Source: Leucoraja ocellata
Lineage: Eukaryota
DNA: 64,000 nucleotides
Reading direction: 5' to 3'
Assembly: GCA_036785375.1 (NCBI GenBank)
Contig: JAWMAR010000384.1
Location: 248,001-312,000 of the forward strand
Shown: in pieces, positions 22,916-63,254 of the stretch
How positions within the stretch are numbered: position 1 is the first letter of the stretch
Layout of the letters: each line of letters starts with the position of its first letter
Program-made: the position numbers and the translations under genes
Notes under the pieces: model-generated
What the model was told of the DNA's origin: nothing
Database searches by the model: none
Seen by the model: the letters and a program-made list of their open reading frames with translations, nothing else

Positions 22916-22964
22916 ATGTCTGAATGGATTCGCGTTCTGGCCGCGTTCGTGTTCTGCTTCCATA
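22916..22964 (+). CDS. IGL: IgL cluster 2 leader exon
   Basis: Identical to the cluster 1 leader; GTAAGT donor. Confidence 0.9.
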
Positions 22965-34788: not shown

Positions 34789-34857
34789 GTCACGTGTTCA
34801 GCAATTTGCATAAATAATTAAATTCAGTGACGTTGCGATGTTTCTGAGTTCATAAGG
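34789..34857 (+). promoter_or_regulatory. Ig V promoter, cluster 3 (GTCACGTG, octamer 34804-34811, TGACGT 34828-34833, TTCATAAGG)
   Basis: Same motif series as clusters 1/2 within otherwise diverged sequence. Confidence 0.85.
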
Positions 34858-34939
34858 TGCGGACTACCAAAAGCCAAGAATCAGACTTCTGTCGATCACC
34901 AGTTGCACCTTTCGCTTGGGATCCGCACTGTCACTCGCC

Positions 34940-35417
34940 ATGGCTGAATGGATTCGGGGACTGGACCGTACTGGTGTTATTTCTTCGCAGTGAGTAAACA
35001 CGCAATTCTTAATTTTGTTGTATATTCTTACATTGCATAAATGTTTCGAAGAGCTCTGAGCATTTAATTAATTTGTATTCCGACAGCCACAGCGCGGAGG
35101 TGATAGTTACCCAGTTCCCGTCTATCTCAGCATTCCCGGGGCACACCGTCAGAATCACCTGCCCCTGTCAGAAGGCACTTTATCCTATCCGAGCTGGTAC
35201 TGGCAGAAACACGACAACACTCCAGTCTTGGTGTGGTATGGCAGCACCAGAGCTTCCGGAATACCTGATCGATTTACCGGTACCAGTGACTCGTCGAGTA
35301 ACCAAATGCATTTAACCATCACCAACCTTCAATCAACGGACGCCGCTGATTATCACTGCTTTATGTGGACCGGTAGTCGATATATCTTCGGGACGGGAAC
35401 CAAACTGAATCTGGGCA
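34940..35417 (+). pseudogene. IGL: IgL type II (lambda) cluster 3 leader (34940-34989) + germline-joined VJ (35087-35417); frameshifted as assembled
   Basis: [22 protein letters not shown], then a -1 shift at ~35163 into [15 protein letters not shown]...[23 protein letters not shown]. Leader is 50 nt instead of 49 and L2 is 10 nt instead of 11. Could be a true pseudogene or consensus indel errors. Confidence 0.8.
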
Positions 35418-35669
35418 GTAAGTATTAACAGAATGCAACCCGTCCTATGTCAATCACCAGCTTTTATTTCTTGTTTTTTTAATCTTTCCATCTCCTTTGC
35501 ATCCACGCCCATCTTTTTGATTCATCCAGTGTACAAAGCGCTGATCAATTTATCGCTGAATCTTTTCTCTTTTCAGGAAGGAAAGGCAAATATCACCCAA
35601 CTTGGTAAAATATTTAGTTCAAGTGAAAAAAACAAAAGATTAAACTATATTCACACAGAACAGGGAGCT

Positions 35670-35980
35670 GAGTAGCGCAGTGTTAGGGTTGCTGCTTTAC
35701 ACAGCCAGAGACCCGATCTTATCTACGGGCGCTGCCTCTACAGAGTTTGTAAGCTCTCCCTGCGACCTCGTAGGATTTCCCCGGGTGCTCCGGTTTCCCC
35801 CCACGTTCCAAAGACGTGCAGGTTTGCAAGTTAACGGGTTTTATCTCATTTGTCCCCAGTGTGTAGAGAATGCATGAGAAAATGGGAGAACATAGAACTG
35901 GTGATCGATAACCGCCATGCAATCGGTGGGCTGAAGGGCCAGATTCCACGCTGCAGCTGTAAATTAATCTAAACTAAACT
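35670..35980 (+). mobile_element. Degenerate copy of the same SINE in the cluster 3 J-C intron
   Basis: Colinear similarity to 48627-48941; (CTAAA)n tail. Confidence 0.7.
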
Positions 35981-36199
35981 AGTGGTTCGTGCAGCGCAAT
36001 TTTAAAATCTCTACACACATAGTGCACAAGATAATAAAAGTTGGTGAAGTTTGGAAGGAGTTCCAGAAGCCATTTAGTAAGAGGCAACCACAACTGCGAT
36101 AATTTATCTTTCAAGGCAGACAGAGGAATCCAAGGCTAACGGCGGGCAAAGGCCTGGTGGGAGATTCGGCAGCAGACAAGTTGAGACAGGAGTAGAGTA

Positions 36200-36452
36200 A
36201 GGACGTCATTTTTCACACAGAGAGTGGTGAATCTCTGGAATTCTATGCCACAGAAGGTAGTTGAGGCCAGTTCATTGGCTATATTTAAGAGTGAGTTAGA
36301 TGTGGCCCTTGTGGATAAAGGGATCAGGGGGTATGGAGAGATGGCAGGTACAGGATACTGAGTTGGATGATCAGCCATGATCATATTAAATGGCGGTGCA
36401 GGTTCGAAGGGCCGAATGGCTTACTCCTGCACCTATTTTCTATGTTTCTATG
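36200..36452 (+). mobile_element. CR1 3' end
   Basis: Matches CR1 3' UTR with TTTCTATG tail. Confidence 0.85.
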
Positions 36453-38491
36453 TCATGAAACTGGAATAATAAATGTCTATTTTCCCCTATGTACCATTGC
36501 CCGATTTCATCTTTTCACAGATAGACACAAAATGCTGCGGTTGCACCCGTTGAGTTTCTCCAGCATTTTTGTGTACCTTAGATTTTCCAGCATCTGCAGT
36601 TCCTTCATAAACACAAAATGCTGCGGGTCGGGCTGCACCTTCGGAGAAAAAAAAGGTTGGGTGACGTTTCGGGTCGTCACCGCCACCCATCCCTTTTTTT
36701 CCAGAGATGCTGGTTGACCCGCTAAGTTACTTCAGCATTTTGTGTCTATTTTGGTATAAACCGTTCAGTTTAGTTTATTGTCACGTGGCCCGGTGTACAA
36801 TGAAAAGCTTTTGTTGCGTGCTATCCAGTCAGCGGAAAGACTGCATGCTTTCAATCGAGCCATTTACAGCGGACATGTAAAGGAATAATGTTTAGTACAA
36901 GGTAAAGCCAGCAAAGTCCGATCAAGGAGAGTCCGAAGGTCACCAATGAGGTAGATAGTAGTTCTGCACTGCTCTCTGGTTGTGGTAGGGTGATTCAATT
37001 GCACGATATGCGCTTTGCAGCTAAATTAGTAGTTGTGAAGTTCAGTCACTCAATTATGCCGGAAACAGTACGGTGCAGAGATATCTAACAGACAGCAAAA
37101 ATGAAGTGTGGGGGGGCGGGGGGGGGGGGGGGGGGGGGTACTTTAAGTCGTTTTGGATGATAAATAAATATCAGCTTGGCCATTTTTGGTTTCATGTTAA
37201 GAATTGCAGTGAATTTAGAGTTGATTCATAACACAAAGACATTGTTCATCGTATCGTTAGAAAATGGGCGATTATTGTTTCGTTAGAAAATGCATATATT
37301 TGATTTCGTGACTCTCTGACCCAGGAGCGGTTTCGGAAAGACAGAATGAGGGCCTGAAAAAAAATGGTGCATAAATGTATCTGTATCTTCGTGGTGAAAT
37401 ATGTACTCTGTATATTAGAGCTCTACCAGAGCGTGGCTGCAATGGTCAGCGAGGTTGAGAAACTGTGGCTGTGATTTGTCCAGAAACCTCGAAAATCAAA
37501 CTCTATTTTTGCCACTTCCATCAATATTAGCGTAGAAATCCAGACAGAAAGAAGCAAACGCAACTGATGGTGAAATGGATACTAAATATTGCAGCTCAGT
37601 TGTAGCCAGAACAGTTGAAAATATATTTCAATTTTGGATCTGTTCCATGTAAGTGCACATATCGCCGACGTCAGATTGAATGTCAGTCTTAAAACCATCC
37701 AATACATGACACCGTGGCAGTTTCCATTTTGATTCTTCTTTTACTGTTTCCATCTTTACTTAACTTTACTGAAACTTTTTCCTTCCGCCCACAATATTTA
37801 ATATGTAAAATAATATGTGATTCTGTTTGTAGTTTGTTTGGTTGTTTGTTTGTTTGTCTTTTTGCACAAAGTCCGCGAGCATTGCCACTTTTCATTTCAC
37901 TGCACATCTCGTATGTGTATGTGACGAATAGAACTTGACCTTGACTTGACATCCATTCAGAGCCGCCTTTTCTGGCCCAAACACCGAAATGTTCCCAATT
38001 GCATTCGAAACAGACATAAACGTGTCTTTGAAGGGAGTCGATAGTTCCAAATATAAAAATTGGATTAGTTTGAATTGTTTTCTTATGTAAAACATCTATA
38101 ATTCATACATATTACGAAGAGGCTATTTCCCAAACTGTGGTCCAGTATTCTTTCCAGGGTTCCAGGCTGTAAAAGTGCAAAATGCATTGATGAAATTCGG
38201 TGTAGAAAGGAACTGCAGATGCCGGTTTTTATCCCGCCAAAGATGGGCGCGGAGTGCTGGAGTAACTCAGCGGGTCAGGCCGCATCTCTCGAGAAAAAGG
38301 ATGGGTGGCGTTCGGGTCGGGGCCGGTTTTAAAGAAGGATCCCGATCCGAAATGTCACCCATTCTGTTGGTCGAACATTGACAACTCTTTGCACATGTTC
38401 CCATTTGTAGAATAACAGAAGAAAGAGGCAATTTGATTCAGACGTTGATGTTATTCCCCATTTCACTTTCCTGCACTTGTTCTATTTTCAG

Positions 38492-38814
38492 CTCCGCGAT
38501 CCCCAGCGGTGTCCGTCCTCCCACCTTCGGAGGCCGAAATCTTGGGAAGGAGCAGCGCCACCCTGGTGTGTTTGGTGAGCGGGTTTAATCCGGGCGTTGT
38601 GGACATTGAGTGGAAGGTGGACGGCAGGGCGAGAAGTGATGGCGTTGAGACCAGCCGGATCCAGCAGGAGAAGGACAACACGTTCAGTGCGAGCAGTTAC
38701 CTGACTCTGCCAGTCACAGTCTGGAACTCACACGAGCTTTACTCCTGTGTGGTTAAACACGAGGCTCGGACAGGCCCGCTGCAGGCAAACATCGCGCGAT
38801 CCAGCTGCATGTAA
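38492..38814 (+). CDS. IGL: IgL cluster 3 constant exon (intact)
   Basis: Acceptor attttcag|C; TPRSPAVSVLPPS...ATLVCLVSGFNPG...WNSHELYSCVVKHE...ARSSCM*; 323 nt; ATTAAA 38907 and AATAAA 38982. Confidence 0.95.
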
Positions 38815-39303
38815 TCCAAGCAGTTTGTGTATTCTGTTTTGCTTCCTTAGAAATGTGTATCATCGTACTTAGACAATTACACAACGTTTTGTCTAATACA
38901 GTTTCAATTAAAACAGTTGTACGATTCTCACAGTGGATTCATTCAGAAGTTAAAACCATCAATGTATCTTTGTCGCAACGTAATAAAACTTCTATTATCA
39001 CCGGGTCCATATTTCTCCTGTATTTTTTAATATCTCTGACAAAATTGAATTCATATAAATGTTTACGATGCTGGTGAGTGATAAGTCGGGCAAAGTGTGT
39101 TTAAAATTGAGCCGGTTCATTTCATATCGTGGAAATATGATCATTGTCACTAGAACCAGGACACGTGGCTGAGAAATTCATGCAGAGAATAAAGGCAAAT
39201 TAAGATGTAGCCAGATAATGGAGGGAAGATGGGCAGATTGAACCTGGGGGGAGGGGGGGGGGGGAGAGGAGGCTCTGTGAGCATGTATCAGGAGCCGGGG
39301 GTT

Positions 39304-39344
<41 letters not shown>

Positions 39345-39732
39345 CGGGGAGCGAGTTTCGAGGCTCCTAGCAATAAATCAGACACGTACAGTCCATGAAG
39401 CGCCTTTCCTTACGGAGTTTCCCTGCGTATTCACAGTGTTATTATCTGCGTAATGCTGTTTGTTGGCTTGCGGTAATTTCCCTTCCATACACAGATTTCG
39501 TTTTCTGCCTTATTCACTAATGACTCTTCATTTTCCTGGCTTCCACTAAAGGTGACTACAGGCTCCTGACATTGGACGTCACTACCACCGCCACCCAACC
39601 CCACACGCTCAGGTCTCCTACCCCTGCTGATTGCCATCCTCCTGTGAACCTATACCCAATTCCCAGGCCCAACACATGCCCGTCTCTCTCTCCCTCTGTC
39701 CGCTATCATCTGACGTCTGCACTCCCAACTCC

Positions 39733-39980
39733 ATAGAAACAGAAAATAAGTGCAGGATGAGGCCATTCGGCCCTTCGAGCCAGCACCGCCATTCATTGTG
39801 ATCATGGCTGATCGTCCCCTATCAATAACCCGTGCCTGCCTTCTCCCCAGATCCCTTAACTCCACTAGCCCCTAGAGCTCTATCTAACTCTCTCTTAAAT
39901 CCATCCAGTGATTTGGCCTCCACTGCCCTCTGTGGCAGGGAAATTCCATCAATTCACAACTCCTGGGTGGAAAAGTTTTT
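39733..39980 (-). mobile_element. CR1 3' end (second subfamily)
   Basis: Near-identical to the 3' end of 44554-45183. Confidence 0.8.
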
Positions 39981-42209
39981 TTCAGGACATACTGAACCCC
40001 CCCCCCCTCCCCCCCATTAGCGCATTGTGATCCAGCACCTCACACCAGCTCCACCTCACTCTTCCTTTCCCCGATATCCTCCTCGTTGACACTGCGTGGT
40101 CTGTATTCAGCGAAACATTACTTTCTACCGCTGCGCCTGCACCTCGGTCCCTCCAGTTTATCAAGCTCCTCGCCCTACGTTTCAGCTTCTGTGCATATTT
40201 ATTGGACAAGGAATCCTCATCCTGAACTATGTATTTTTTCTCTCATGAGCCCAGAACACTTTTGCATTCGGACATCTCATTATCTTTTAACCCCAATTAA
40301 TCAATAAATGAAGAAACTACAGATGCCGGTTTACACAAAAGTACACCACAGTACTGGAGTAAATCAGTAGGTCAGACAGCATTTCTGGAGAACATAGATA
40401 GGCGACGCTTCGGGTCGGGAGCCTTCTTCAGACTTCTTGTAGTTGGGGTGCGGGGGCCTGGGAGAGAGGGGATGTAGACAGAGCGTGGGATGTGCCGGAT
40501 GGACACAAACTAGGGTGGATTTTGACAGGCAGATGATGGAGGTTATAGGCGCGAGTCCAGGTGACGTACAGGGAGGGGAGGGGGCGAAACGGGGGAGGGG
40601 CAGAACGTATGAGGGGAGGGGTGTTAGAGGTTATCTAAAATTGGAGAATTAATTACACTCCCACTCCCCACACCGCGCTATCCCTGTGCCTCAGCTGGAC
40701 GAACGCCCATTTCTCTCCTCTTCCTCCACATCTTTCTCCCTCCCTCCTCTACATTCCTTCCTCTGGCTTCACAATAATCTCTGACCTTTATTCCAAACAT
40801 CTGCCGACCAAAGACTCCCTCGTGTGTCCACCAGTCACTTGCCACGCCTTGTCCTGCCTCTCCTGTCTCCCAGCTTTCTCTACATCCCCCCCCCCCCCCC
40901 CCCCCCGCTCCCCCACCCTCACTACGTCACCTATTCATGTTCTCCAGAGATGTTGCCTGACCCGGGTAGTTACTCCAGCACATTGTGTCCTTTGACAAGA
41001 TTGACGTCATCTGAACAGGAATGTGTAGATATTCAGATTGTGGATTTTATTCAGCTGTTGTTACCTTCGGCATTACGCGATCCTTAGGTATTTACCAGAA
41101 TGTAAACTATTCGATATTTCTCATGAAATTAAGAAAACCAATATTTTGGGTTGATCATAAATAGTGGACATATTACAAAATTCAATTCAAATGGCTATTT
41201 ACAGACTTTCTTTCTCATATTAGGCATGTATATACCATACCAGATATAAACGTTCCATGCAATTACATTGCATTTTCAGCCCATTCTACGTTTTATTTTT
41301 TCTACATTCTGCTCCCTTCCTCCGTCTCCTTTCAACTACATCTCTACCTCTGGCTTCACATTTCACTATTCTTCTCCACTTACCTTACACCCATTGTCAC
41401 TTTTTTTAAACCACTGTCCAGTGCCAGTGATATCACGGGCCATCTACCAGTCAAAGCTGTTCCATCTGCATCCCATCTGTCACACCAAAGGCCTCTCGCC
41501 ACCACCCCACCCCCCCCCCCCCCCCCACCCCCACACACCACATTTTCCATTATCGCCGCCCCCCACCAGTCAGTCTGAAGAAGGGTCCAGATCCGAAACC
41601 TTGCCTATTCATGTACTTCAGAGATTAGGTCAGGTCGGGCGGAGTTCCCCCGCCACGGGTACCATGTAATCCCGTGCTATCTGCTCCTTGGTCGGAGAGT
41701 CGGTGACTAAATCGTCTCCCCCACCTGGTTTGTGAGATGGGGGGGGGGTGGACCCCCAGCTGGACCAAAAACAAGACCGGCCAAGGGGGGATGAGTTTCT
41801 AGTGAGCCAACGGCCATCACACTTCAGTAGAAGTTGCGATCACTGTCGGACATAGCAGTGTAAGGAATGATGATAAAGCACGCACACATCAAAATCCTAT
41901 ACTTCCGGCGGCGGAAGTCTGCAGGAGCTGGAGGACAGGGGATGTGCGGTGCGTCCGTCACCGTTCCAGTCGGAACCAGCACCCACTGTGTTTCTAATGT
42001 TTTCAACGATGATAAATAAAATAAAAATAATAAAAGAGATGAATACTCTGAGTTACCGAGTTACTCCAGCACTTCGTGTTTTGCCCATTCCACCTATCAG
42101 TTCAAGAACCGTATTTATGATTCCCAGGAAACTCCTCCTTCCATATTACATTTGATTCTGCTATGGTATCTATTTGTTCCTTCGTATAACACAAAACCTG
42201 TGCAAGTGG

Positions 42210-42409
42210 NNNNNNNNNNNNNNNNNNNNNNNNNNNNNNNNNNNNNNNNNNNNNNNNNNNNNNNNNNNNNNNNNNNNNNNNNNNNNNNNNNNNNNNNNNN
42301 NNNNNNNNNNNNNNNNNNNNNNNNNNNNNNNNNNNNNNNNNNNNNNNNNNNNNNNNNNNNNNNNNNNNNNNNNNNNNNNNNNNNNNNNNNNNNNNNNNNN
42401 NNNNNNNNN
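42210..42409. other. Assembly gap (200 N) covering the 3' half of GP1BB
   Basis: N run. Confidence 0.99.
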
Positions 42410-42754
42410 AGGAGCACGACAGGTGCTTATACGGGGATCGGTCTTCTTGTTTAAGAAGCCAAGATCTCAGGTATAAAATGTTGCAATCGCATGTCCACGG
42501 GTTATTGTCCAAAGCCACAGACCTCAGGTGATACAGGGTGTCGAAGAGCCCGTTGGGGATGGCAGAGAGTTTGTTGTTGCTCAGCCTGATTTCGGTGATG
42601 GTGTTCCCAAAGCGCCTGGAATGGTGCTGACATTCAGCTCCTGGCCGCTGCAGTCCACAGAGGTCCCTGTGCAGCTGCACGCTTCTGGACACTCGAAGAC
42701 AGCCACCCGAAGCAGGGAAAGAAATACAAGGAACGTTTCTCGCCGTCTCATCAT
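42410..42754 (-). CDS. GP1BB: Platelet/thrombocyte glycoprotein Ib beta, 5' part of main coding exon (one -1 frameshift near 42618; remainder lost in N-gap)
   Basis: Signal-like MMRRRETFLVFLSLLRVAVFE; LRRNT CPEACSCTGTSVDCS; single LRR IRLSNNKLSAIPNGLFDTL; LRRCT NPWTCDCNILYLRSWL...RSPYKHLSC (human GP1BB RAPYRDLRC). Acceptor ccatccgcag at 42764-42765. Lies directly 3' of SEPTIN5 on the same strand, as in other vertebrates. Confidence 0.85.
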
Positions 42755-43401
42755 TTTAATAACCTGCGGATGGAAGGGGTGGGGAACGTGGGAGAAAATA
42801 ACATGTTAGGCTGTAAAATAGATGGTGAAAGGGACGTTGATGTAAGGAAGACGCCGATCAGGATCTGGCTCACAAGTCAAAAGTTGAGCGCTTATCTTAA
42901 AATGGTTATTAAGTAATAGTCGAACCGGATGGGTGGGTGGGTGTGTGGGGGAGAGAGAGGGATGTGGAGGAAGCAATCATAACATTATATTCAACATTTG
43001 GTCCTTGTGTTTCAAAGTTTCATTTAGGTTGGGAGGATTTATTGCTCGGTCTGCAATATCTTTGGATCACCGAGGACTGTGCACCTGGCGGGAACAGACA
43101 TATCACTCGCGGCCGTAGCTCAGTAGATAACCCTCTGGTTTCCAGGCAGCTAGTCCATTGAACACAATTCAATAGAGAACAAATTGCACAATATTTTGCG
43201 ACACAATACATTTCCGAGGCTGGCATCTTGAGCAAAAAATAAAAGGCTGGAGGAAGACAGCGGGTCAGACGGCATTGGTGGATGAAAGGAAACATAGGGC
43301 TGGAGTAATTCAGCAGGTCAGGGAGGGACATGGATATGTGCCATTTCGGGTCGAGACCGTTCTTCATATCTGACACTAGTCACCCCCTGCATAGCGGTGT
43401 C

Positions 43402-43718
43402 ATAGAAACATAGAAACATAGAAATTAGGTGCAGGAGTAGGCCATTCGGCCCTTCAAGCCTGCACCGCCATTCAATATGATCATGGCTGATCATCCAACT
43501 CACTATCCTGTACCTGCCTTCTCTCCATACCCCCTGATCCCCTTAGCCACAAGGGCCACATCTAACTCCCTCTTAAATATAGCCAATGAACTGGCCTCAA
43601 CTACCCTCTGTGGCAGAGAGTTCCAGAGATTCACCACTCTCTGTGTGAAAAAAAGTTCTTCTCATCTCGGTTTTAAAGGATTTCCCCCTTATCCTTAAGC
43701 TGTGACCCCTTGTCCTGG
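43402..43718 (-). mobile_element. CR1 3' end
   Basis: (CATAGAAA)n tail on + strand; reverse complement of the 4309 family. Confidence 0.85.
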
Positions 43719-44553
43719 GGTTTGTTAAACGTTGACCAACTAACCTTTCGATCCTGCAGGGTCGTCACAGAATCACAGATGTTTTCCGTCTTGGGTGTAT
43801 TTCCCACTTCCCTTGCAAAGATACGGTTGCTTCTCCTCTACTGATACGCCAGGCAGGTTTGTCCCGCTGATCAGAACCAAAATACTTCTTTGTTAGTCGC
43901 CAACTGGAGAAGAGGCACAGACATAGGATCAAGATTTTTTTTTAAAGCAACACAAGGTGAAACGTGATTTGGAGATCCTTTGGGACATCGTTTTTCATCA
44001 CATAACCATTGACGCCACACCAAAAAAATCAATGAACTGGAATGCCAGGATAAGGCAGCAATACAACGAGCCAGTCACGTTTATACTTTCTACAAGATAA
44101 ATAAAAGATTTATACCACCGGTTCTTTTTTTTTTTAAGTAGATATGGTGCGAACCCCTATTTTATTCTGCATGAAACGTCTTTTCTGACTTGTATTCTGC
44201 AGCTGGTTGCATGTGTAAATTTAGTTGGAACTTTTGCGACTCCTTTAGGATATTCCACTCCGAAATGTTGTTTTCATAAGCATGAGGATTTTGCGGCGCT
44301 GCAGAGGCGGATTGGCGACCGACTGGGGTTGCATCTTGGCGCATCCACTGGGGAAACGATTTTAGGGAGCTGTGTCTTGCGGGGTTCGAGCGGACCCCTG
44401 CTGAAGCTACCAGGCGAATTTAACCGTTTCCAAGCACATGTGTGAGAAATCCCCCATAATTTGTCCAAGATCCTAATGTTTCGATTACAATAATAAATTT
44501 AACTGACATTTCATTGCTACACTACACGAATAAAAGGTTTTTTGAAGCATCAT

Positions 44554-45183
44554 ATAGAAACATTGAAAATAGGTGCAGGATGAGGCCATTCGGCCCTTCG
44601 AGCCAGCACCGCCATTCATTGTGATCATGGCTGATCGTCCCCTATCAATAACCCGTGCCTGCCTTCTCCCCATATCCCTTGACTCCACTAGTCCCTAGAG
44701 CTCTATCTAACTCTCTCTTAAATCCATCCAGTGATTTGGCCTCCACTGCCCTCTGTGGCAGGGAATTCCACAAATTCACTACTCTCTGGGTGAAAAAAAA
44801 TGTTCTCACCTCAGTCTTAAATGACCTCCCCTTTATTCTAAGACTGTGGCCCCTGGTTCTGGACTCGCCCAACATTGGGGACATTTTTCCTGCATCTAGC
44901 TTGTCCAGTCCTTTTATAATTTTATATGTTTCTATAAGATCATCCTTCTAAATTCCAGTGAATACAAGCCTAGTCTTTTCAATCTTTCCTCATATGACAG
45001 TTCCGCCATCCCAGGGATCAATCTCGTGAACCTACGCTGCACTGCCTCAATCACAAGAATGTCCTTCCTCAAATTAGGATACCAAAACTGTACACAATAC
45101 TACAGATGTGGTCTCACCAGAGCCCTATACAACTGCAGAAGAACCTCTTTAGTCCTATACTGAAATCCTCTTGTTATGAAGGC
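44554..45183 (-). mobile_element. CR1 3' fragment
   Basis: ORF 44645..44884 [34 protein letters not shown]. Confidence 0.88.
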
Positions 45184-46199
45184 ACATTTTACACCATTGG
45201 TAATCAAGCTTGTCCGTTAAACACTAATAAAAACAAAAATGCTAATTCAATTTAATTGTTTATAAATTGTTTATACTGGAACTTGCTTAATTAACCCCCC
45301 CCCCCCCTCTCCCATCCCCCCTCTCCCCCCCCTCCCCCCATCCCTCTCCCCCCACCCCATCCTTCTCCCCCCTCCCATTTACCTTTCAGTGTCTTGACTT
45401 ATATCCTAATGTTCAGCATGTCTTTTCTACCGTAAAAGACGAGACTAAATAAATGCACAGGCGTGTGCAAGCATTTCACACCAAAATAATTTTTTAAACT
45501 CCAGTTCTTTTCAGTTTTGAGTGACCTCGTTAGGACGTCACGGCGACAGATGATAGATGCTGCCCCAGTTGATAAAGGGGACAGGGGTGGCCGTAAACAG
45601 CTGGTTGGTTTGCAGCCCCACCCAGTATCGTGTTAAACGGCACGAAATCAGCAAAGCCCATCGAGTTCTCTCTTCTGTGCAATTTCCAGTTTATCGGCTG
45701 GCTGGCTGCAAATTCATTGTTTGGTTCAGTAATAATTCCGAGAAACACGAAAATATCTTATGGCCTGACACCATCCAGGCCAATCCGTACACAGCAAGCT
45801 GGGAAAAGCCGGCCAGTACAAGTTGGGACATGAATGAAAGTGTAAAACCTGTGACCTCCGATGTCCCACAGCCCTCTGTGTGGCTTCTTGCCGCTAACCG
45901 TGTGTCATTATCATCGGTTTTGAATAGTTGTTTGCTACCTACACGATGTGTATCATTCTGTGTAAAACACCAGTAAATCCTTACCGAATACTGGTGCTCA
46001 ACTCTGAATTCGGGAGGTAATGAGGGCCATGGACAAATACGGCAAATGCACCTAGCCCATCTTTGTCAGTATGGCCAGGGTGGGCTGAAGGGCCTGGTTC
46101 CGTGATGTGTAGCTATATGACTCCATAATTTCTGTCCAAGTTTATCTCTCCGTCCTTTTGTGCACCGCCACCCCCCCCCCCCCCCCCCCTCCTCAAACC

Positions 46200-48400
46200 G
46201 CACAGCAGAGTATCCGGCCCAGCTTGCTCATGCCGACAAAGGTGTCCCATCTACACTAGTCCCACCTGTCTGCATTTGGTCTATATCCTCTAAGCCTTCT
46301 CTCTCCATATACCTGTCCAAAAGTCTTTAAACTGTTGTTATAGTTACTGCCTTAACTACACCCCCCCCCCCCCCCTCCACCTGCAGCTTATTCCACATAT
46401 GCACCACCCTCTGTGTGAAAAAGTTGCCCCTCTGATTCCAATTAAATCTTTCCCCTCTCATCTAAAACCTATGGCCTCTGCATCTTGATTCCCCTCATCT
46501 GGCTAAAATACTCAGTGCATCTACCCTATCATTTCCCCTCATGATTTTGTACACCTCTAAGATCTCTTCTCATCTCCCTACGCTCCAAGGAATACAGTCC
46601 TACCCTGCCCAACATCTCTCTGTAACTCAGACCCTCAAGTCCTGGCATCTTCTTTGAAAATCTTGTCTGCACTCCTTTCAGGTTAACATTATCTTTCCTC
46701 TAGCAGGGTGACTGAAACTGAACACAATACTCCAAATGTGGCCGTGCCAGCACCTTGTACATAATATTTCAACTTCTGTACTCAATACCCGACTGTTGAA
46801 GGCCAATACACCGGGAGACTTCCTGACTTCTTGATCTACCTGTGACTCAATTTTCCAGGTACTATGTACCTACATTCCCTTGATCCCTCTGTTCTTCCTC
46901 TCCACAGAGCTCAACCATTTACTGTGAATGTACTGCCTGGTTAAATTTCCAAAAGTGCATCACCTCACATTTATCTGCATTAAAGTTGCCCAACTGATCA
47001 AGATCCTGCTGTTACCTTTGTTAACCATCTTTGCTATTCTACAATATCATCCACTATAGTCTCATCTGCAAATCCATCCAAATGATTGATATAAACTGAT
47101 CCATCCAAATGATTGATATAAACTTCACCCTCATTAACAATCAGTACGGGAGCACCTCAAGGCTGCGTGCTCAGCCCCCTGCTCTACTCTATGTGTCTAT
47201 TATTATTATTGTTGCACTGTTTTGTTTGTTTTTTGAGTATGTGTGTATGTGTATATACATATATATGGGTATGTTGTGAGCATGTGTACGTATATATACA
47301 CATTAAGCTTTTCTTTTTTCTGTCTCGTTTGTCATATCATACTGTGTTTGCATATTCAGTTGTGCTGCAGCACGTAAGAATTTCATTGTTCAATCTGGGA
47401 CACATGACACTCTTGACTCTTGACTACAGAGCAGTGGGCCCAGTGCCGATCCATGAGGCACACCACTAGTCACAGGTCGTCAGTCTGAAAAACAAACTTC
47501 CACAATCATTCTCCGCTTCCTTCCATGAAGCCAATTTTCTATCCAGTCAGCTAGCTCTCCCTAATCCCATGTGATCCATCATTCCAACCTGCCATGTGGA
47601 GCCGCATCAAATGACTTGCTGACATCCATAATGGCAACTTCCACTGCTCTGCCCTCAGCAACCTTTTTGGTTAAAGCTTCAAAAAACTCAATGAGATTCA
47701 TGAGACACAAACTCCCACGTACAAAACTGTGCTGACTATCCCTAATCAGTCCTTGTTTTAGTTTTTAGTTTAGTTTTAGAAGTACAGTGCAGAAACGGAC
47801 CCTTTGGCCCACTGAGTCCGCGCTGACCAGTGTCCATCTTCAATGCGGAAGACACAGAAACCCTACTAGAAACATGAGAAAAAAATGTGTTTAGCAAGAA
47901 CAAGGAATTGAGGAAATTAATATTGGTGAGCTTAAAAGCTGAAAAATCTGAAGGACCCAAAGATCTATATCACAAAGTTCTGAAGGACAAGCTATAGAGA
48001 TTATATATCTTCAAAATTTCTGTGTTGTGAACCTATTTCTTATAGTTCAAAAAGTGAAAATGTGACAACACTGTCCAAAAACAAGGATTGACTAGTCCGC
48101 TGGCTTAAGTGGTAAGGGATAATACTAGAATTTATAATAAATTATGTATTAACAAATATCATTGAAAAAATGAATCAGATTGTCAAAGTCAGGGTGACCT
48201 ATGAAAAGAAGATCACTTTAGTCTGGAGTTATTTGCGATGCAATGGAAGAACTGGTGAAGAGGAACCAACGGATATGTGGTAATTGGGTTTTTTATAAAT
48301 CCCACAGTGAAAATTGATCAATTAGAAAATTAGAGTACATGAAATTGTGAGCAAATACTGACAGAGATTGAGAATTGGTTATCAACAGAAAGCTGAGAGT
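46200..48400. mobile_element. Nest of older CR1 fragments with a short Rex1/Babar-like RT piece (~47125-47425)
   Basis: Degenerate CR1 similarity on both strands; STGAPQGCVLSPLLYS peptide at ~47145-47190 and a (TCTTGAC)n tail. Boundaries approximate. Confidence 0.55.
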
Positions 48401-50603: not shown

Positions 50604-50607
<4 letters not shown>

Positions 50608-50654
<47 letters not shown>

Positions 50655-50672
50655 AAAAATATATATATATAT
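50608..50672. repeat. (TA)n microsatellite
   Basis: Directly visible. Confidence 0.9.
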
Positions 50673-53610: not shown

Positions 53611-53616
53611 TTTATT
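53611..53616 (-). terminator. Candidate SEPTIN5 polyadenylation signal AATAAA
   Basis: TTTATT on + strand ~320 nt after the stop codon; further candidates at 51186 and 50573. Confidence 0.4.
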
Positions 53617-53933
53617 AGTAAAGAGTATTTTCCACATACGCATTCCAATGTAGATATCCCTCTGAATGTTGTTAAATTGTACTGACAAGATATTAAATAC
53701 AAACCCAGACAAACAAGCAGGATATGTAAATTATATGGTGGCACTATACAGGGTAGGCCAGACACAAGGTGACCCTTGAGCTGTCTCTAGAGTATAACAG
53801 GAAACACATGACACGTTCTGTACAGTGCATTTCCCCCAGGGGCTCGCCCTGCGTCTTGTGTCACCTTCCTCACGCCAGTTGGATTTGGTTGAAGTGGTGA
53901 GTCTTTGTTCTTTGCTCAGTCTCAGTCCATCAC

Positions 53934-53990
53934 TCACTGGTCTTGCATTTGCTGTTGCATTCGTTGCAACATTTCCTGCATTCGCCGGAG
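53934..53990 (-). CDS. SEPTIN5: SEPTIN5 last coding exon
   Basis: [21 protein letters not shown]; ctttctgcag acceptor. Confidence 0.92.
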   Translation of the reverse strand, partial: LRRMQEMLQRMQQQMQDQ

Positions 53991-56900
53991 CTGCAGAAAG
54001 GAAGGTGTAATTACTGAGCTCTATTGCGTACTGATACACACTGGCAACAGGCAGCAGCAGTGGTTTTTCCATCATTGAACAATACACACTGGTTCAACAA
54101 CCACGCATCCCTTATACTGGGATAATGAGTGTCTAAAACGCTTGGGAACATTCATATTATTCAGATAATGAAAAATGCAAACAGCTGAGTTTGCATAAAT
54201 TGAATACTATGTGAAATTAAATTATATTCAAATACACTGAGAACTGACAGATGACATAAGAAATTACCTCAACATCTATGATAAGGAGATTACTTAATAA
54301 CAACTTGATTCCCTGGTCAAATCAGAGACCAAAGGCTAATATTCAAGTTACAATCCAAGTTTCCAAATTCTTGTGTGGATAGGCCTTGTATACTTTCATC
54401 TGTCCAGTTTTACCTTCTGATGATTCAATGGGAAACCAATTTGAGTGGTTCCTATGTTGGGCAATACATTTGCAAATCCAGTTTAATATCTGGCTGAAAT
54501 TCGAAATTGTAGATTATTTATAGCCAGATAAGCAGTCATTAGAAAGCCCACTACTCAGGAGCACAGGGAATGAATTCATTGCTGGGAAAGAACAACATTG
54601 CAACACCAATTTTATTTAACTGGCTCTGCCCACTGTTGGCGATTCCATATTCAAGCTAATCATGGCAAAATCTCATCTTGATTAATTTGCAAATGATTAC
54701 TTCCTGTCAAGTCTCAAAACAATTAAAAAATGAACAGCAAACCAAAATTAAACAGTAAAATCACAAATGTGGATTAAATATTTTCGGTGAATTTGGCCAC
54801 CAGTAACAGACTCAAGATTGTCACAGACTATTCAGTTACATGATGTGGATTTCACACCTCAAACACTCATCTCTCTTCACACTTCAGCCACTCACCTCTT
54901 CATCTTTCATTTTGATCAGTTTCTCTGTCTCTGCATCCGGAGTTGGCACTGGGAGTATGGGGAGGGGACTTTCTGCTCGGTTGTCCTGGGTCAATTTACT
55001 GTGTAAATTAAAGAATGGAAAAGTCAGTGGCTTTTTTCAGCTGGCTTTGCAATTTTATAATGTCACACTGGGAATAATAAAATAATTTCTGATCTTCCGA
55101 TTCTACACTTCCAAACATGACGATAACATGAACTGAGTGAAACTCCCTAACGAGAAAATGGCCACAATTTAGCATGGTGGTTGGTGTCGATCCCCTATAC
55201 CTCCACGAAAACCTCACCAATGTTTCGTAGCGTACTTGTGGGAAACCCTTGAGAATTTGAGGACCACTCATTGAACCATTGTAATTTGTCTGGAAAAGCC
55301 ATGAATTTTAGCAGAGCAATTCTTGCAAGGAGTCCTCAGAAAAGGAGTGGTGAAAATTCAAGGAAATGGTATAATTCACTGATAAGAACTTCCATGGAAA
55401 TTCTACCCTAAAAGAGCTATTTTTGAGAGAGGACCGCATGTTTTTTTCTTTGCATGAGGCATGAACCAAATGATTCCGACAATCCTGTGGTTCTTGCACT
55501 ATAATGCTGAGAACTGTATCCTGCATTTTTCATCTTTCCCTTCACTCTAACTATTGCACTTGAGTTTGGCTTGCTTGTATTTATGTCTAATATTATCTTA
55601 TTTGATAGTATGCAAAATGAAAGCTTTTCAACGTATCAATACACATGACAATAATAAACCTAAAGGTCAACCTAATTCAGCATCCATGATATATCATGAA
55701 TGCAATAAACAATAGGTGGAATTGGCTGCCGATAAATTCAGTTTCAACATTGCTCTGATGGGAGGGTGAATGATGGGCAGAAAGAAAACCAACCTTGTCA
55801 TTTCCTGAATGCACCGAGCTCTGAAGTTCTCATAGTGAATGTCCCAGGTAACATCCTTCAGGTCCTGCATGTGTGTTCGGATCAGCATGTTCCGCAGTTT
55901 TACAAAATCACAGTGTGCCTGGTTCTCCACTGTAATGAAATATAATCAAGAAACAATTCTTCAGGCTAGTTATTTATTGACTGCAATGACGAAGTGTCAG
56001 ATGACGTCTGAGGAAGGTTCCCCGACCCAAAACGTCACCAAACGTCACCATGTCTTCCAGAGATGCCACCTGACCTGCTGAGTTACTCCAGTACTTTGTG
56101 TTTTTTTGTAAAACCGAAAAACTGCAGTTCCTTGCGTCTGTGCTGTTCAGGGGAGAGCTTTAGGAAATCTCACTCAATACCAGATCCAGCCCTACCAAAT
56201 GGACTTGAATATTTCACTCATATTAGAAAGTGGAGGTTCAGCCATACTGGGCAAGTGGTGCTGAAACTTTTGTCTCAGAGGCAGTAATGCTGCACCGAGG
56301 CAAATGCTCTGTGAAAATAATTCAGTGTAAAGAAGTGGCTGGTAAATATTGACTCTGAAAAATGTGTAATCAGGAAATCTATTGTCAATTACTTATTTTT
56401 CCTCAATCAATTGAGTTTTACTTTGGACAGTAAAATTCAGGTGGACCTTTTTGCACTTTTCATCTTATTGATGTCCTAGTGTTACATGGTGTTATTGTCA
56501 TTTCAGACATAAAGATGTTGTTCCTAACTGTCCGCACATTTCGAGGAAACCCTAAAGAACCAGCATTTATGCTTCTGGCACAATCTTATTGAATAGCAGA
56601 GCAAACATTTTTGTGTACCATGAGAAGTCAAATGGCCTGCTGTTACTTTTTATATATTTACATTCTTGGGATCCAACAATGTAACAATGGTTCATATGGA
56701 GTCAATTACACTAAAATATTTAAACGTTATGAAGGATTTTTTTTGTTTAAAATGTTAATTAATTAACCACTGTGCCCATTTAAAATGGCAAATTACATTT
56801 AGAATCAGTTTATCATAAATGTTGCACTAAAACCACGTGCAAAAATGAGCATACCTTTTGTGTATGGTAAGCCCATTTTCAGCTTTCGTAATCTAATCGT

Positions 56901-59900
56901 ACTATTGGCATGTTTTAGTATGTCATGGAATACTTTGTAAAAAAATCAGAATAACTAATTAGGTCTTAAAACACTGCCCAGCATCTTATAACACATGTAA
57001 AGCACTGGCCAACGAGAGTTGTTTTTTAAAATGGGCTATATAAATAAATGTGAGTTGACTTGACTTGAATATTGGCTCTTGACAGTTTTTGCATTTCGCA
57101 ATAAACAAATTAGTGGGAGTGGAGAATTAAAACTAAACATTTCACAAAAGGGATGCTAGTTTGGGCATGATTTAAATTGAGCACGCCCAGGTTGAAAATT
57201 GTATCTTTGACTTTTATCCAAACAAGCACAACCTCAGACACACCTACATGTAATTTCTCGAAGTGTCTCCAAAGCAGTCAGCCCAATCATTCTAGTCTTT
57301 GCCTCTGAATGGTACAGATGCGAACATAATACTTTTGTGGGAGTTCGCCTCATTCAGAATGCATTTTGTGCTCCCGATGTGGTCTTTTTTACATAGGAGA
57401 GACCAAGTCACCATTTTGCTGAACACTTGCACGCTGCCGGCCAAGACTGGCTGGAGCTCCCGGTTGCTACTCATTTATTAAAGACCTCTTCCCATTCCCA
57501 TGCTGACCTTTCTGTCCTCTAGTGCCAAAGTGAGACCACACATAAACCGGAAGAAAAGCACATCATATTCCTCCTGGGCAGCTTACAAACAAGTGGCTTG
57601 AATATAGAAGTAACCAATTAAAAATAATGCCCCCTTTTAAAAACATTGCATACATTTACACCACTTCCCACCACCCCAGTCACCATGCTCCTATCCCCAC
57701 TTCCATGTGCTTATCTCCCATCCCTCTACCAATTTTCCTATTTATCTCCCTATCCTTCACTTCCCCCTGCCCCCTTCCACCAAAATTCTTCCCTCTGACT
57801 TCACATTTCAGTCTTCTTCCCATATCTGATACCTTTTTGTATCCTTTTCACCTCTAGTCTTTGTCATTTACACCCATCTGTCAATTAGCCCCCCTCATCT
57901 GTATCCACATATCACCTTTGTCCCACCCTCACCTCTCTTTTCTAGCTTTCTCTCCCCGACTGCAAACAGTCTGAAGAAGGGTGTCAAAACACAGTCTGTC
58001 CATTCCTTCACAGATGCTGCCTGACCCACTGAGTTCTTCCAGCACTTTGTTTTTTAATCACAATTCCAGCATCTGCATTCTCCTGTGGCTGATTTGATCC
58101 ATTCCCCAGCGATTTTGCACGAAACTGATGATGCCATCCATACAACTCTCTTGGCTAAGGTAACACGAGTGGGGATTAATGTGACATTCTGTAAAGTATT
58201 AATCTTAGTTTAATATCAGGGAATGTCCTTTTGTATAATAGTGTCAGATTAATTAGAAAGTGCTCTATAGTTTACATTCTTCCGCTGAGTTATTTTGCTA
58301 TCTATCACTTGGATAATAGCCTATTGTTAATATGTTATGCTTGCAAAAAATTCCATTCAAGAAGAGAAAGGGGGGGTTTTCTCCTCTACTTTAAGATTTA
58401 AAACGCTCACATGTCAGGGCCTCTCTGGAGCAGGGCAAGTTAGGCTGCCTCTCTTTCCCTCCTTCCCTGAGCTTGCTCACCTTCTACAATGCCCCATGGA
58501 TACAGTCGGCCACGGACCCTCTGACCTCGAGCTTCCACCACTGTGTTGCTGCCGATGACTGCAAAGGGAATGCTTTCCTGTAACCATTCAGAAGTAGGAA
58601 ATTATATTAAGGAGGATTAATAAAAATGAAAAGTAAGGAAAGACAATGGAATATCTCATTGAAAAATATATTTAATAATAAGACCAACACAGGTTTAATA
58701 AATGCCTCATCCCACTGAATGGTTTGTCCTAATGTCTCCTATGAGAAAACAATGAATTAATATAAGAATATGTTCCTGCTTCTAATGGCACACTGGGCCA
58801 TAATTATAGACTCTATCACAAAATATTACCTCTCCCAATAACAATCAAATCAGAATTGATTCCAAAGTTTATCAACAGATAAGTATAAAGATCAAATCCT
58901 TTTACAAATCTGTATCTTCTTCGTAACGTTGCGATCCTCATGGATATAGAGCATTGCATTATATCAGGTCTATTATATTAGTCTGTGTTCTGAGCCCAGG
59001 CAAATACAATGATGGTCAGGATTAAAGCCCTGTTCAGCTCTGGGAAGGTAGAATTGGGGAAGATCCCGCTGTTTCCACTCAGAATTTGCATCAGGTAGGA
59101 ACACAGTAAAACTCCAGTGAATAGCAACAAGGATGTGTTATATAGTGAAACAAGTGCATCAGAGTTGGAGTTACTTCACTGAAGCTGTCCTCATCATATC
59201 ATTTCCTTCTCTAGTATCTGTTGCTGCTGTATCAAAGTCTGATTCTTTCTATAAACTAAAATCACCACTTCCACCATTTTCCTTGAATCTCTCGTTCCTT
59301 GAATTTCAATTTACCTTTAGTTCTTTATCTTGCTTTTTAAATTCGTCATCTTCATCCGAGTCACATTCAGGAAATTGATATATTTTAATTCCGTATTGTT
59401 CAATTTCATCTCTTATCTACATTGGAACAAGGAAGAGCAGAGTAGAGTTCCAGTTAATAAACCAGGCTGAGAAATTCAATTTGACAAGAACAGCATTGAT
59501 TATGACATAGTCAAACAAGACCATGAACTTCAGACATGACAAAAATCCAAACAAAGGAGTAATAAGGGAGGTTGACTCTGAAGACATTGATGAAGCTAGG
59601 AAAATTGGTGGAGAAACATAAAAGTTCCAGGCTTTTGCAGCATATGTGGGGTGGTTGTGTGAGAATGCAAAACAAACTGGAAATGCTAGAAATCTGAAAT
59701 AAATGTTTTTAAATGCTGGAAATACACAGCAGGTTTGGCCACATCTGCGGGTAGAGAAACAGTTAATGTCAACCCCTATTTTGCTCCCCACAGATGTGGC
59801 CTGACCTACTGATTATATGGGTGGAGGCCTTGGCAGCAAATGTAGGGATGAGTTTGGGTTTAGGAACCAACAGACCACAGCGTGCTGTGTTTCACAGTGT

Positions 59901-62900
59901 TTCGCAGTCAGTGAAACTATAAGCGCAAGCTATGAAATGGATTTAAAATGTTGCAGAGCTGGTGAACTGAGCAGTGAGGATGGGGCAATGGCTTGGGAAC
60001 CATCAAAGGACCTGAGATTGCAAAATAATGGCTGCAAGACTGAAAAAGTGTGGATGTTGGTAAACGCTGACCAGGTTGACCAGGCGCTGGGTTTAATGCC
60101 CGGATTGTCTCTACCGCTTGACAATGTTGGGGAATATCTTGTGCAGATGATGCATCGCTGAGAGAAGACTGATTGGGCAATAATTAGCCAGATTGGATCC
60201 ATTTAGTTTTTTTTGTTAAAATTAGTTATCTGGGCAATTTTCCACATTGTCTTTAAATGTCAATGTTGCAGCTGTAATGGAATTCCAAACCAGATGGTAT
60301 TTGTGAATGACTAGCAATATGGGCTGTTGATAGCACAGTTTGTTGGTGACAACGTGACATACTTCCTGGGATATTAATAACACCAATAATATGGAGGATG
60401 TGCTTTTTGCCTGTGGCAGCTGAATTTTATGTTCTGCTTTTTTAATCTCTGAGGCACTTATATTATGAATGATTTTTCTCACCCTCTCTTTGAGTTTCTT
60501 CACCTCGATGGGAGTGAGCGAGTCTGCTTTTGCAATTATTGGTACAATGTTCACTTTCTGATGTAACGCTTTCATAAACTCCGTGTCCAGTGGCCGCAGC
60601 CTATATCCAAGCAGATGGAATAAATTACACTCACAGTGGGCGGACTGTCCCTCCCCACCTCCATAGACCAAGCATCTCCAGAGAAAGTACAATCACAGTG
60701 AAGGACAAATCTAATCTCAAAGGCTAACCATGGGCCATCTGCAAGTGGATAGTGGTTCCAATGATACAAGGAGCAATGCTGTTTTTCCAAGTCCCATAAT
60801 AAGATGTAAAGAAAAGCAGATTTAGCTTCTCGTGCAGTCTCTTCCACAAGAGACTGCAAGAACCACTGATTTCTCTGCCAATGTCTTACACAATTGTCTC
60901 AAAGAACAATCAGACACAATTAGCCCAGGACTGGACCCACTGTAAAACAACCATAGTACAGTCTAATATGTTACCCTTTCAATTCTCTCTCAAAGGTAAA
61001 GCATAATAAATTAATTACAGAACACCGGCCTGTCCATAACTCACAACACAACCTAAAATACCTTCAGATAGCTGGAGCATCTCTAAAACAAATGACAAGC
61101 TCTTCTGCAAGGCAAAATGCAGACCATAAACTCACCCGAGACTAAGAAATCAAATACAGAAAGTTCAATAAAACCCTGGTGACATTATTCTCAAGAGAGG
61201 CTCTCCTTCACTCCCAATCAACACATTGGGCTGTGAATGTGGCTGATGACACATCATTAAACTTTACTTGCCTTGCCCCTTGATCGCATTTAGTGCGGGA
61301 AACTAACCCAAGTACACTGCAGAAAGTCATTTCCTTCCTGATTACTTCAATCTCTATCAATTGCATTCGCTCTTACCCGTGTCCATAGGGAGAGATAAAA
61401 TACAAGCAGCAGTGGATACGGTTATCCTGAATGTTCTTGCGATTTAGGCCACTCTCATCTCGGAAATACTGCTCGAACTGTTGGTCAATATAGTCCGCTA
61501 TAGGCTTCCAGCTGCCACAAAAAAAAGAGGAAGAGAAATGAAAGAGATCTCTTTTAAAGGAACGTTGGCTCACAAATGTCAGCAAATCAGAATAGAGTCA
61601 GTGAGATTCCCTCTTGGTTTGTTTAGGAAGGCACAGGTTGAAGTGTTGACTTGGTCTGGGCAAACAAAACAAACACATTTCACTGCTCTGATACTGAAAG
61701 GACATTTAAATATAGGTTGATTGATGAATGACAATATTCGTAGAAATACTGACTTTAATATAGAGGCCTGGTAAATATAGACTTTAGTATTGTTAAGAAC
61801 AATAAATATGATAGAGAAATTCATCAGCGCCCACAGGGGCCATTAATACATCTGCATACCATGCTGGTTAGTAAAGCATTCAATACTCACAGGTATCAAG
61901 GAACAACTGCATAACATTTTAGGTTATGTTTAGACCTAAAGACCTATAAGAAGGGGAAACAGGAGTAGGCAGCTCAGCCTCTTGTACCTGCTCTGCCATT
62001 CATGGTTGATGCCATTGTTCTAACCTTTCCCCATAATCATGATGATCTTGTTTGTAGACAGCTTGCCATCACACCAGTTTCAGTCACTTCCCTTGACTCC
62101 AGTATTCATGACTGCAAACACTCTGAGGGAAGTACGCTGGTACTGTCATCCTAAATTGTGCATTCAACAGCGATCTCAGTTCCTCAGAGTAATGTCGGCA
62201 ACTGTTGGTGATTTTCCATTGTTACGACCAAAAACCTCCAGGCCAATATGATACAAAGATAAGGCACGATGATGAATTAAGGTTTATGCTGCGATACAGC
62301 TTAAACATTGATGCAAACATTTTGGAACAAATGACCTGAATCCAACTGTGTAATATTCACTTACAGATGTTCAGATGTGGGCTATTCAGCTGGTTGCACC
62401 TTGCATATTCTTGCCATCGAGGGAGTACAGAGAAGGTTCACCAGACTGATTCCTGGGATGGCAGGACTTTCATATGAAGAAAGACTGGATAGACTCGGCT
62501 TGTACTCGCTAGAATTTAGAAGATTGAGGGGGGATCTTATAGAAACGTACAAAATTCTTAAGGAGTTGGGCGGGCTAGATGCAGGAAGATTGTTCCCGAT
62601 GTTGGGGAAGTCCAGAACAAGAGGCCATAGTTTAAGGATAAGGGGGAAGTCTTTTAGGACCGAGATGAGAAAAATAAATTTCACACGGAGAGTGGTGAAT
62701 CTGTGGAATTCTCTGCCACAGAAGGTAGTTGAGGCCAGTTCATTGGCTATATTTAAGAGGGAGTTAGATGTGGCCCTTGTGGCTAAAGGGATCAGGGGGT
62801 ATGGAGAGAAGGCAGGTACAGGATACTGAGTTGGATGATCAGCCATGATCATATTGAATGGCGGTACAGGCTCGAAGGGCCGAATTGCCTACTCCTGCAC

Positions 62901-63254
62901 CTATTTTCTATGTTTCTATGTATCTATGTTTCTATATTATTCAGATGGTTCCTGGAAGATTAATTATCTTAACCCAGCTTGGATATATTACCCTTTAAAT
63001 CCATGCTTGAGGAAAATAATATCCACCATTCTGAGTTTTGAAACCTTCTATCATCCTGTTCCTTGGAAACAGAGTTCCACATGCCTGTCGCTTTTGTAAG
63101 GAAATCACCATTGGCATCACAAAAACGTACCTTTGTATGTTGTTGACTGCATCGCCAAATCCAGGCGTATCAACTATCGTCAACTTTAATTTAACACCTT
63201 TCTCTTCAATGTCCACTGTGTGTTTTAAAATCTCCACTGTTTGATTGATCCTCT
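53934..63254 (-). CDS. SEPTIN5: Septin-5, last eight coding exons (5' part lies beyond the window)
   Basis: Exons 63131-63254, 61377-61511, 60483-60600, 59315-59416, 58481-58577, 55794-55929, 54896-54998, 53934-53990 splice in frame via GT-AG to [35 protein letters not shown]...AKAD...[18 protein letters not shown], matching SEPT5-specific sequence. Confidence 0.95.
54896..54998 (-). CDS. SEPTIN5: SEPTIN5 exon
   Basis: [34 protein letters not shown]; 103 nt. Confidence 0.92.
55794..55929 (-). CDS. SEPTIN5: SEPTIN5 exon
   Basis: [45 protein letters not shown]; 136 nt. Confidence 0.93.
58481..58577 (-). CDS. SEPTIN5: SEPTIN5 exon (septin unique element)
   Basis: [32 protein letters not shown]; 97 nt. 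Confidence 0.92.
59315..59416 (-). CDS. SEPTIN5: SEPTIN5 exon
   Basis: [34 protein letters not shown]; 102 nt; read by hand, not in ORF track. Confidence 0.92.
60483..60600 (-). CDS. SEPTIN5: SEPTIN5 exon (G4 motif AKAD)
   Basis: [39 protein letters not shown]; 118 nt. Confidence 0.93.
61377..61511 (-). CDS. SEPTIN5: SEPTIN5 exon
   Basis: [45 protein letters not shown]; 135 nt. Confidence 0.93.
62405..62935 (+). mobile_element. CR1 3' fragment in a SEPTIN5 intron (antisense to gene)
   Basis: ORF 62377..62829 open to the CR1 ORF2 stop; TTTCTATG tail. Confidence 0.9.
63131..63254 (-). CDS. SEPTIN5: SEPTIN5 exon (G3 motif DTPG)
   Basis: [41 protein letters not shown]; cacag acceptor, GTACGT donor. 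Confidence 0.93.

Follow-up and report, generated by a model that had tools for sequence, protein, structure and literature searches.

Germline-joined lambda light-chain clusters adjoin GP1BB and SEPTIN5 in a skate genome, very probably at an old position of the cartilaginous-fish lambda locus

The 64,000 nucleotides analyzed here (the window) stem from the skate Leucoraja ocellata (assembly GCA_036785375.1, contig JAWMAR010000384.1, positions 248,001 to 312,000 of the forward strand) and carry three clusters for type II (lambda) immunoglobulin light chains (IgL), each consisting of leader, germline-joined VJ and C exons, on the plus strand facing GP1BB and SEPTIN5 on the minus strand (Table 1). 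The window very probably represents one end of the chondrichthyan lambda locus, with an old junction to GP1BB and with lambda kept on one ancestral chromosome, on which its neighbours were altered by inversions. The genes fall within a known class, of which they are ordinary representatives, and neither a new gene type nor a new mechanism is involved. The anatomy of the clusters is no different from that of other chondrichthyan type II clusters; the addition lies in where they map and in how this position is conserved. A link between lambda and GP1BB/SEPTIN5 is stated nowhere in the open-access full text searched, but subscription literature may already note the synteny.

Conservation of the link in elasmobranchs was assessed via two proxies, the length of the shared sequence record and the order of RefSeq accessions, which tends to follow map position. 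The best 120 of 178 lambda matches included 111 chondrichthyan lambda-type rows, from which we set aside 17 without a contig, one from Logan, four on small scaffolds of Scyliorhinus torazame, and 14 from four species without a GP1BB record together with one scaffold row of one such species. In all 13 elasmobranch species with chromosome-scale GP1BB records, every lambda row among these best 120 of 178 matches (74 of 74) resides on a record of GP1BB's length. Whale shark and zebra shark possess GP1BB but have no lambda row among the matches listed. Since all 74 rows fall on a single record per species, shark lambda appears as a fixed, concentrated locus, and the sequence-only reading, which had described chondrichthyan clusters as often dispersed, does not hold in this respect. 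When 21 lambda clusters were looked up, a lambda accession was found at most three numbers away from GP1BB in six of the 13 species. GP1BB of Leucoraja erinacea (XP_055511167/168) is directly followed by the orthologue of cluster 3 (XP_055511169). Lambda accessions likewise come next in A. radiata (GP1BB 032899462, then lambda 463, 465, 467 and 469), M. asterias (GP1BB 078082987/988, then lambda 989, 990, 992 and 993) and H. akajei (GP1BB 072911816/817, then lambda 818, 819, 821 and 823), while lambda precedes GP1BB in H. sabinus (lambda 059839158 and 159, GP1BB 160) and H. francisci (lambda 067911420, 421 and 423, GP1BB three numbers off at 426). Furthermore, gene model XP_032898935 of A. radiata joins two chains, one of the cluster 2 type and one of the cluster 3 type, which follow each other as they do in the window. 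Shared records and consecutive accessions indirectly place the lambda-GP1BB junction before the split of sharks and rays.

A corresponding arrangement is apparently present in a chimaera. On elephant-shark scaffold NW_024704749.1, a published table lists rsph14, gnaz and rab36 (1.8-2.0 Mb), top3b, ppm1f, mapk1, ypel1 and ppil2, followed by mrpl40, C22orf39, ufd1l, cdc45, cldn5a, sept5a (plus strand), LOC103188591 (plus strand) and 11 IgL lambda rows (PMC10751288, supplementary file 9). LOC103188591 spans 1.6 kb on the plus strand 4.8 kb downstream of sept5a, ten of the 11 lambda rows are on the minus strand, and the array of 11 starts 11.5 kb past LOC103188591 (PMC10751288). Judged by its place, strand and size, LOC103188591 would be GP1BB. 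The elephant-shark cluster thus shows the same succession of sept5a, a small gene on the same strand and lambda on the opposite strand, albeit with a spacing of 11.5 kb versus about 4.4 kb or more in the window. This arrangement already stands in the published table, where it goes unremarked, and a term search of the main text of PMC10751288 returned no mention of chromosome 22. As computed from the table, top3b and rab36 lie 693 kb and 855 kb, respectively, from lambda, and both the TOP3B-PPM1F-MAPK1-YPEL1-PPIL2 and the RSPH14-GNAZ-RAB36 blocks fall within 1.1 Mb of it. The expectation that other chondrichthyans share the link to GP1BB-SEPTIN5 is borne out by skates, rays and sharks and, by way of this table, by a chimaera. 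The junction therein probably predates the split of elasmobranchs and chimaeras.

The assignment of the chains to type II, as made in the sequence-only reading, is supported by their similarity to named lambda chains. C3 and V2 are 69-70% and 60-66% identical, respectively, to three lambda chains from Carcharhinus plumbeus (sandbar shark) and one from Heterodontus (horn shark). V1 and V2 nest among named shark lambda chains in a quick tree with two tetrapod rows and long branches, for which the careful search was unfinished. Among single-domain PDB entries, V2 matches a lambda-type V best (95 bits), while kappa-type domains reach 54-69 bits (four alignments of 314 matches); the type of these PDB chains is what we take it to be from the aligned letters. 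As far as the sequences tell, the V domain is closer to tetrapod lambda than to kappa. Orthology to tetrapod lambda is already accepted from V-domain trees. In the classification of Criscitiello and Flajnik, type II, also termed NS3, equals lambda and is always germline-joined; the window shares with it V-J-C miniclusters, joined VJ and a C domain of about 70% identity (PMC5192425, PMC5985310). Germline joining alone is not diagnostic of lambda because skate sigma-2 is joined as well (PMC5192425). The NCBI name 'lambda-1 light chain-like' also covers sigma, sigma-2 and UrIg2 (PMC12227049) and was therefore not used as isotype evidence. Matches in the ESM Atlas were to lambda-like clusters only; their names are automatic and serve as a lead only. 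Automatic naming also labelled a lambda-type chain (P0132) as kappa-like and a fusion of two lambda chains (P0152) as alpha-2 heavy chain-like. P0001 and P0003, which are assigned to Aeromonas veronii and Salmonella enterica, are shark lambda C-region proteins encoded on contigs of 410-652 bases and represent contamination of bacterial assemblies.

In humans, GP1BB and IGL are about 2-3 Mb apart. For bony vertebrates in general, gene order was taken from papers. Tetrapod IGL is located between MIF/VPREB3 and TOP3B (PMC9614664) and has TOP3B, PPM1F, MAPK1, YPEL1, PPIL2, HIRA and other 22q11/12q24 genes in common with the chondrichthyan region, although it is a rearranging translocon, unlike the miniclusters of the window. 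VpreB1 is found by TOP3B in mammals, and chicken chromosome 15 carries VpreB3, VPS29L and lambda C (PMC9614664). Lambda of gar (LG20) and sterlet differs in its immediate neighbour, IFT81, and the sterlet cluster is split and equipped with recombination signal sequences (RSS) (PMC5985310). Both nevertheless belong to the same linkage group when judged via the elephant-shark table, in which ift81 and vps29 lie 4.3 Mb and tbx1 8.7 Mb from the lambda array within the same block (PMC10751288). In human and mouse, GP1BB is followed by TBX1 (PMC4487986). In the bony vertebrates covered by these papers, the immediate neighbour of lambda is thus not the one found here. All lineages have the linkage group in common but not the exact neighbour, and these differences weaken the notion of one and the same exact site, not orthology. 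The earlier proposal that position supports lambda orthology independently of trees holds for the linkage group as a whole, with the genes flanking IGL within 1.1 Mb in elephant shark. Lambda sits in the linkage group of human 22q11-12 and 12q24 genes, which also houses it in gar, sterlet, chicken and human; it has probably remained on one chromosome from the ancestor of jawed vertebrates onwards, with inversions exchanging the genes right beside it. Conservation of this map position between chimaera and human offers support that is independent of short, fast-changing domains, the C regions of which yield trees mixing kappa and lambda.

Within the window, the junction itself contains one of two stretches of N (11706-11839 and 42210-42409). 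The sequence-only reading had put lambda and GP1BB tail-to-tail within about 3.6 kb. Orientation and order stand, with the last C stop at 38814, GP1BB from 42410 and SEPTIN5 next, but the distance does not, as its 3,595 bases include the 200-N placeholder. In intact GP1BB orthologues, 70 codons follow the last residue visible here, equalling 213 bases with the stop, and the true gap therefore exceeds its nominal length. Read contigs placed on 37900-46100 came from four of the 24 runs listed, namely contig runs X1, X2 and X6 and one RNA run, whose depth over GP1BB is below 0.4. From the right, contigs of all three contig runs enter the gap past 42410, by 418 (X1), 419 (X2) and 412 (X6) letters, and from the left they pass 42209 by 89 (X1) and 789 (X6) letters. 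Barring overlap between the left and right pieces, the gap would measure at least about 480 bases by X1 and about 1,170 by X6, and the stop-to-stop distance would amount to about 4.4 kb or more.

A number of points weigh against the proposed history. Neither record length nor accession order equals coordinates, and the 13 elasmobranch species are not independent of each other. In seven of them there is no near accession, with one to three accessions each and the nearest lying from 24 to more than 28,000 numbers off. None of the four lambda rows of Scyliorhinus torazame, for which only scaffolds are available, is on GP1BB's 41 kb scaffold. LOC103188591 carries no gene name in the elephant-shark table, and two rows marked 'IgL lambda' in lungfish are found there among 14q11-type genes (TEP1, APEX1, PSMB5) (PMC10751288). 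Published C-domain trees mix kappa and lambda (PMC5985310), and our isotype comparison comprised named lambda chains and PDB domains. Finally, none of the 24 read pieces listed bridges the gap, a further 467,093 pieces and, swollen by repeats, 3,991 joints and 9,009 loose ends lying outside this listing.

The last point would also fit an assembly artefact, that is a gap joining unrelated contigs and a false adjacency, as would the round figure of 200 N and the single-base frame errors on both flanks, which suggest poor consensus at contig ends. The reads neither show nor contradict the join at 42210-42409 and provide no evidence of a mis-join. An artefact is nonetheless extremely improbable, since the accession of the L. 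erinacea cluster 3 orthologue adjoins that of GP1BB and a like pattern recurs in five further species and in the elephant-shark table. A different view of the chromosomal context has been published: elephant-shark lambda is labelled major histocompatibility complex (MHC) paralogue 14 and is argued to mark an ancestral link of antigen-receptor genes to MHC paralogue 9 (PMC10751288, repeated in PMC12227049). We regard this link as unlikely, even though lambda and RXRA/NOTCH1 share one scaffold in elephant shark and lungfish rows marked lambda are on a paralogue-9/14 chromosome. By the human chromosome assignments that we presume for its genes, the part of the elephant-shark scaffold table at hand shows 22q11-12/12q24-type genes over the first 13.05 Mb and 9q-type genes from about 13.1 Mb on, with a sharp boundary 9.9 Mb from lambda and with RXRA 16 Mb off. 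Moreover, paralogue 9 extends to 170.96 Mb on white-shark chr8, which is more than the 146.98 Mb of the lambda/GP1BB record, and catshark paralogue 9 is on chr21 with 71.0 Mb as opposed to 313.6 Mb for the lambda/GP1BB record. These lengths place paralogue 9 and lambda/GP1BB on different chromosomes in both species. The label 'lambda' in lungfish may in turn cover sigma, sigma-2 or UrIg2. A position of lambda in the 22q11-12/12q24-type group would remove one stated support for an ancestral antigen-receptor/MHC-paralogue-9 chromosome put forward in two recent papers, and this can be checked against public coordinates.

Even if lambda has stayed on one chromosome as we propose, its neighbour in the jawed-vertebrate ancestor is a separate matter. 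That the ancestral lambda locus already adjoined GP1BB is conceivable, yet we consider it somewhat doubtful. Such an ancestral state agrees with a junction common to elasmobranchs and, by position, a chimaera, with the slow change of elephant-shark synteny (PMC3964593), and with the distance of 8.7 Mb to tbx1 in elephant shark, by which the mammalian GP1BB-TBX1 pair may be a derived join. Against it stand the different neighbours in every bony vertebrate covered: GP1BB pairs with TBX1 in human and mouse, and lambda lies beside IFT81 in gar and sterlet and beside VPS29L in chicken. In elephant shark, IFT81 is 4.3 Mb from the array and no Ig row is marked there. As the comparison involves two sister lineages and lacks an outgroup with Ig genes, the direction of change cannot be read from the junction alone. 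The portions of PMC3964593 and PMC7916673 available to us add nothing on light-chain position.

The lambda V domains of elasmobranchs fall into two families, one with a short second complementarity-determining region (CDR2), to which those of the window belong, and one with a long CDR2. The families were separated by BLAST scores; a split by regular expression missed 50 of 113 proteins and was dropped. Across 60 accession rows from six species, the short-CDR2 family forms runs adjoining GP1BB. In A. radiata, L. erinacea and H. sabinus, long-CDR2 members make up runs of their own at a distance of 18-24 numbers from GP1BB, and such runs also occur within a second accession batch in four species; a single row, XP_032898961, is off this pattern. 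We tentatively suggest, from accession order only, that elasmobranch lambda could consist of two sub-arrays with two old V families, which bracket the HIRA-to-SEPTIN5-GP1BB block, the long-CDR2 one lying beside PPIL2-YPEL1-MAPK1-PPM1F-TOP3B, a block found at the flank of human IGL. If true, lambda and its human neighbours were already no more than about 1 Mb apart before sharks and bony vertebrates split and have stayed so, and the published link to MHC paralogue 9 is a side effect of chromosomes fusing or being joined in the chimaera. On NW_024704749.1, three small unnamed genes occupy 2520194-2550558 between ppil2 and the gene preceding mrpl40, where the second sub-array is predicted in elasmobranchs.

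Table 1. Features of the window (positions count from its first letter)
Feature	Position	Strand	Remarks
IgL type II (lambda) cluster 1	6231..10279	+	octamer 6231, leader 6361-6409, joined VJ 6500-6838, C 9957-10279; frames open
IgL type II cluster 2	22786..26674	+	octamer 22786, leader 22916-22964, joined VJ 23055-23396, C 26352-26674
IgL type II cluster 3 (terminal)	34804..38814	+	octamer 34804, leader 34940-34989, joined VJ 35087-35417, C 38492-38814
Intergenic stretch	38815..42209	.	AATAAA at 38982; single-copy pieces among high-copy repeats; single-copy 41952-42209 adjoins gap
Gap	42210..42409	.	200 N, nominal length; conceals last 70 GP1BB codons and more
GP1BB coding sequence, first 115 codons	42410..42754	-	ATG 42754 down to gap; one frame change near 42617
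Upstream GP1BB exon	43742..43807	-	matches N-terminal extension of Logan proteins P0004, P0138
SEPTIN5-type gene, eight 3' coding exons	53934..63255	-	stop at 53934; 5' exons beyond window
Septin exons (approximate)	63139-63255, 61373-61510, 60483-60600, 59309-59416	-	
Septin exons (approximate)	58476-58580, 55796-55932, 54893-55005, 53934-53996	-	

Each of the three clusters encodes one V-set and one C1-set domain and has an octamer about 130 bases upstream of the ATG, a short leader exon, V and J in one exon, an intron of about 3 kb and a single C exon, in which the terminal cysteine for the bond to the heavy chain is encoded. The C exon of cluster 3 ends with TAA. No RSS (heptamer-spacer-nonamer) was present near any of the three clusters in the window sequence. 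With an octamer promoter, a split leader and a VJ joined in the germline, each cluster is self-contained and needs no RAG step. The units of clusters 1 and 2 are 95-97% identical copies about 16.5 kb apart; the array grows in place by tandem duplication of this unit, and its end lies tail-to-tail with GP1BB-SEPTIN5. The C of cluster 3 is about 83% identical to those of clusters 1 and 2. Cluster 3 shows frame changes in the leader near 34965 and in V between 35090 and 35165, which its intact orthologues P0024 and P0153 lack. A pseudogene was considered and rejected since P0024, a spliced chain 99% identical to cluster 3, and the L. erinacea orthologue are intact. The frame changes in cluster 3 and in GP1BB are probably consensus errors, given the intact orthologues P0024, P0153, P0136 and P0139 and one additional base over GP1BB in the X6 contig.

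The joined VJ of cluster 3 has a fixed CDR3 and is matched one-to-one by orthologues from Leucoraja, Amblyraja and Rhinoraja (87-97% across the 3' portion of V). The VJ of this terminal cluster is a candidate conserved invariant light chain. Between J and C, the introns of clusters 1 and 2 each hold a second octamer (8491 and 25048), which the cluster 3 intron lacks; these intronic octamers possibly belong to a putative enhancer. At 11706-12404, the cluster 1 unit has a 134-N gap and about 565 bases with no counterpart in the cluster 2 unit. Haplotype duplication could partly account for the pair of clusters 1 and 2; the presence of at least three genes of the cluster 1/2 type in A. radiata tells against this. 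One spacer is found in three copies (1-2900, 16739-19441 and 31632-34307), which makes a further cluster immediately to the left of the window probable. The last of these copies stops about 500 bases short of the cluster 3 octamer and marks a duplication breakpoint. Over the C exon region 38448-38721, the summed contig depth is 10-45 times that of single-copy sequence in three contig runs, which fits many lambda clusters, the depth being no copy number.

The visible part of GP1BB encodes a single leucine-rich repeat with its flanks, on the same strand as the septin gene and downstream of it, and matches named GP1BB of L. erinacea in 66 of 67 residues. Eight of 11 matches of this fragment are named GP1BB and the remaining three are unnamed or hypothetical. 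The transmembrane and cytoplasmic part is within the gap here and is encoded in intact orthologues. A pseudogene was rejected for GP1BB too, as intact orthologues exist and the X6 contig has 345 bases over the coding stretch compared to 344 in the window. When the visible GP1BB piece was compared with PDB, generic leucine-rich repeat proteins ranked higher than GP1BB, and the outcome was not used. Four exons of the septin gene are 81-95% identical to the GP1BB-proximal septin of a fused teleost model. This identity, the position upstream of GP1BB and a C-terminal motif that we take to be of the SEPTIN5 type identify the gene as SEPTIN5 rather than another septin. The fused teleost model P0014 (Aldrovandia) comprises two septins and then GP1BB, an order that matches zgc:63587, sept5a and the small gene in the elephant-shark table.

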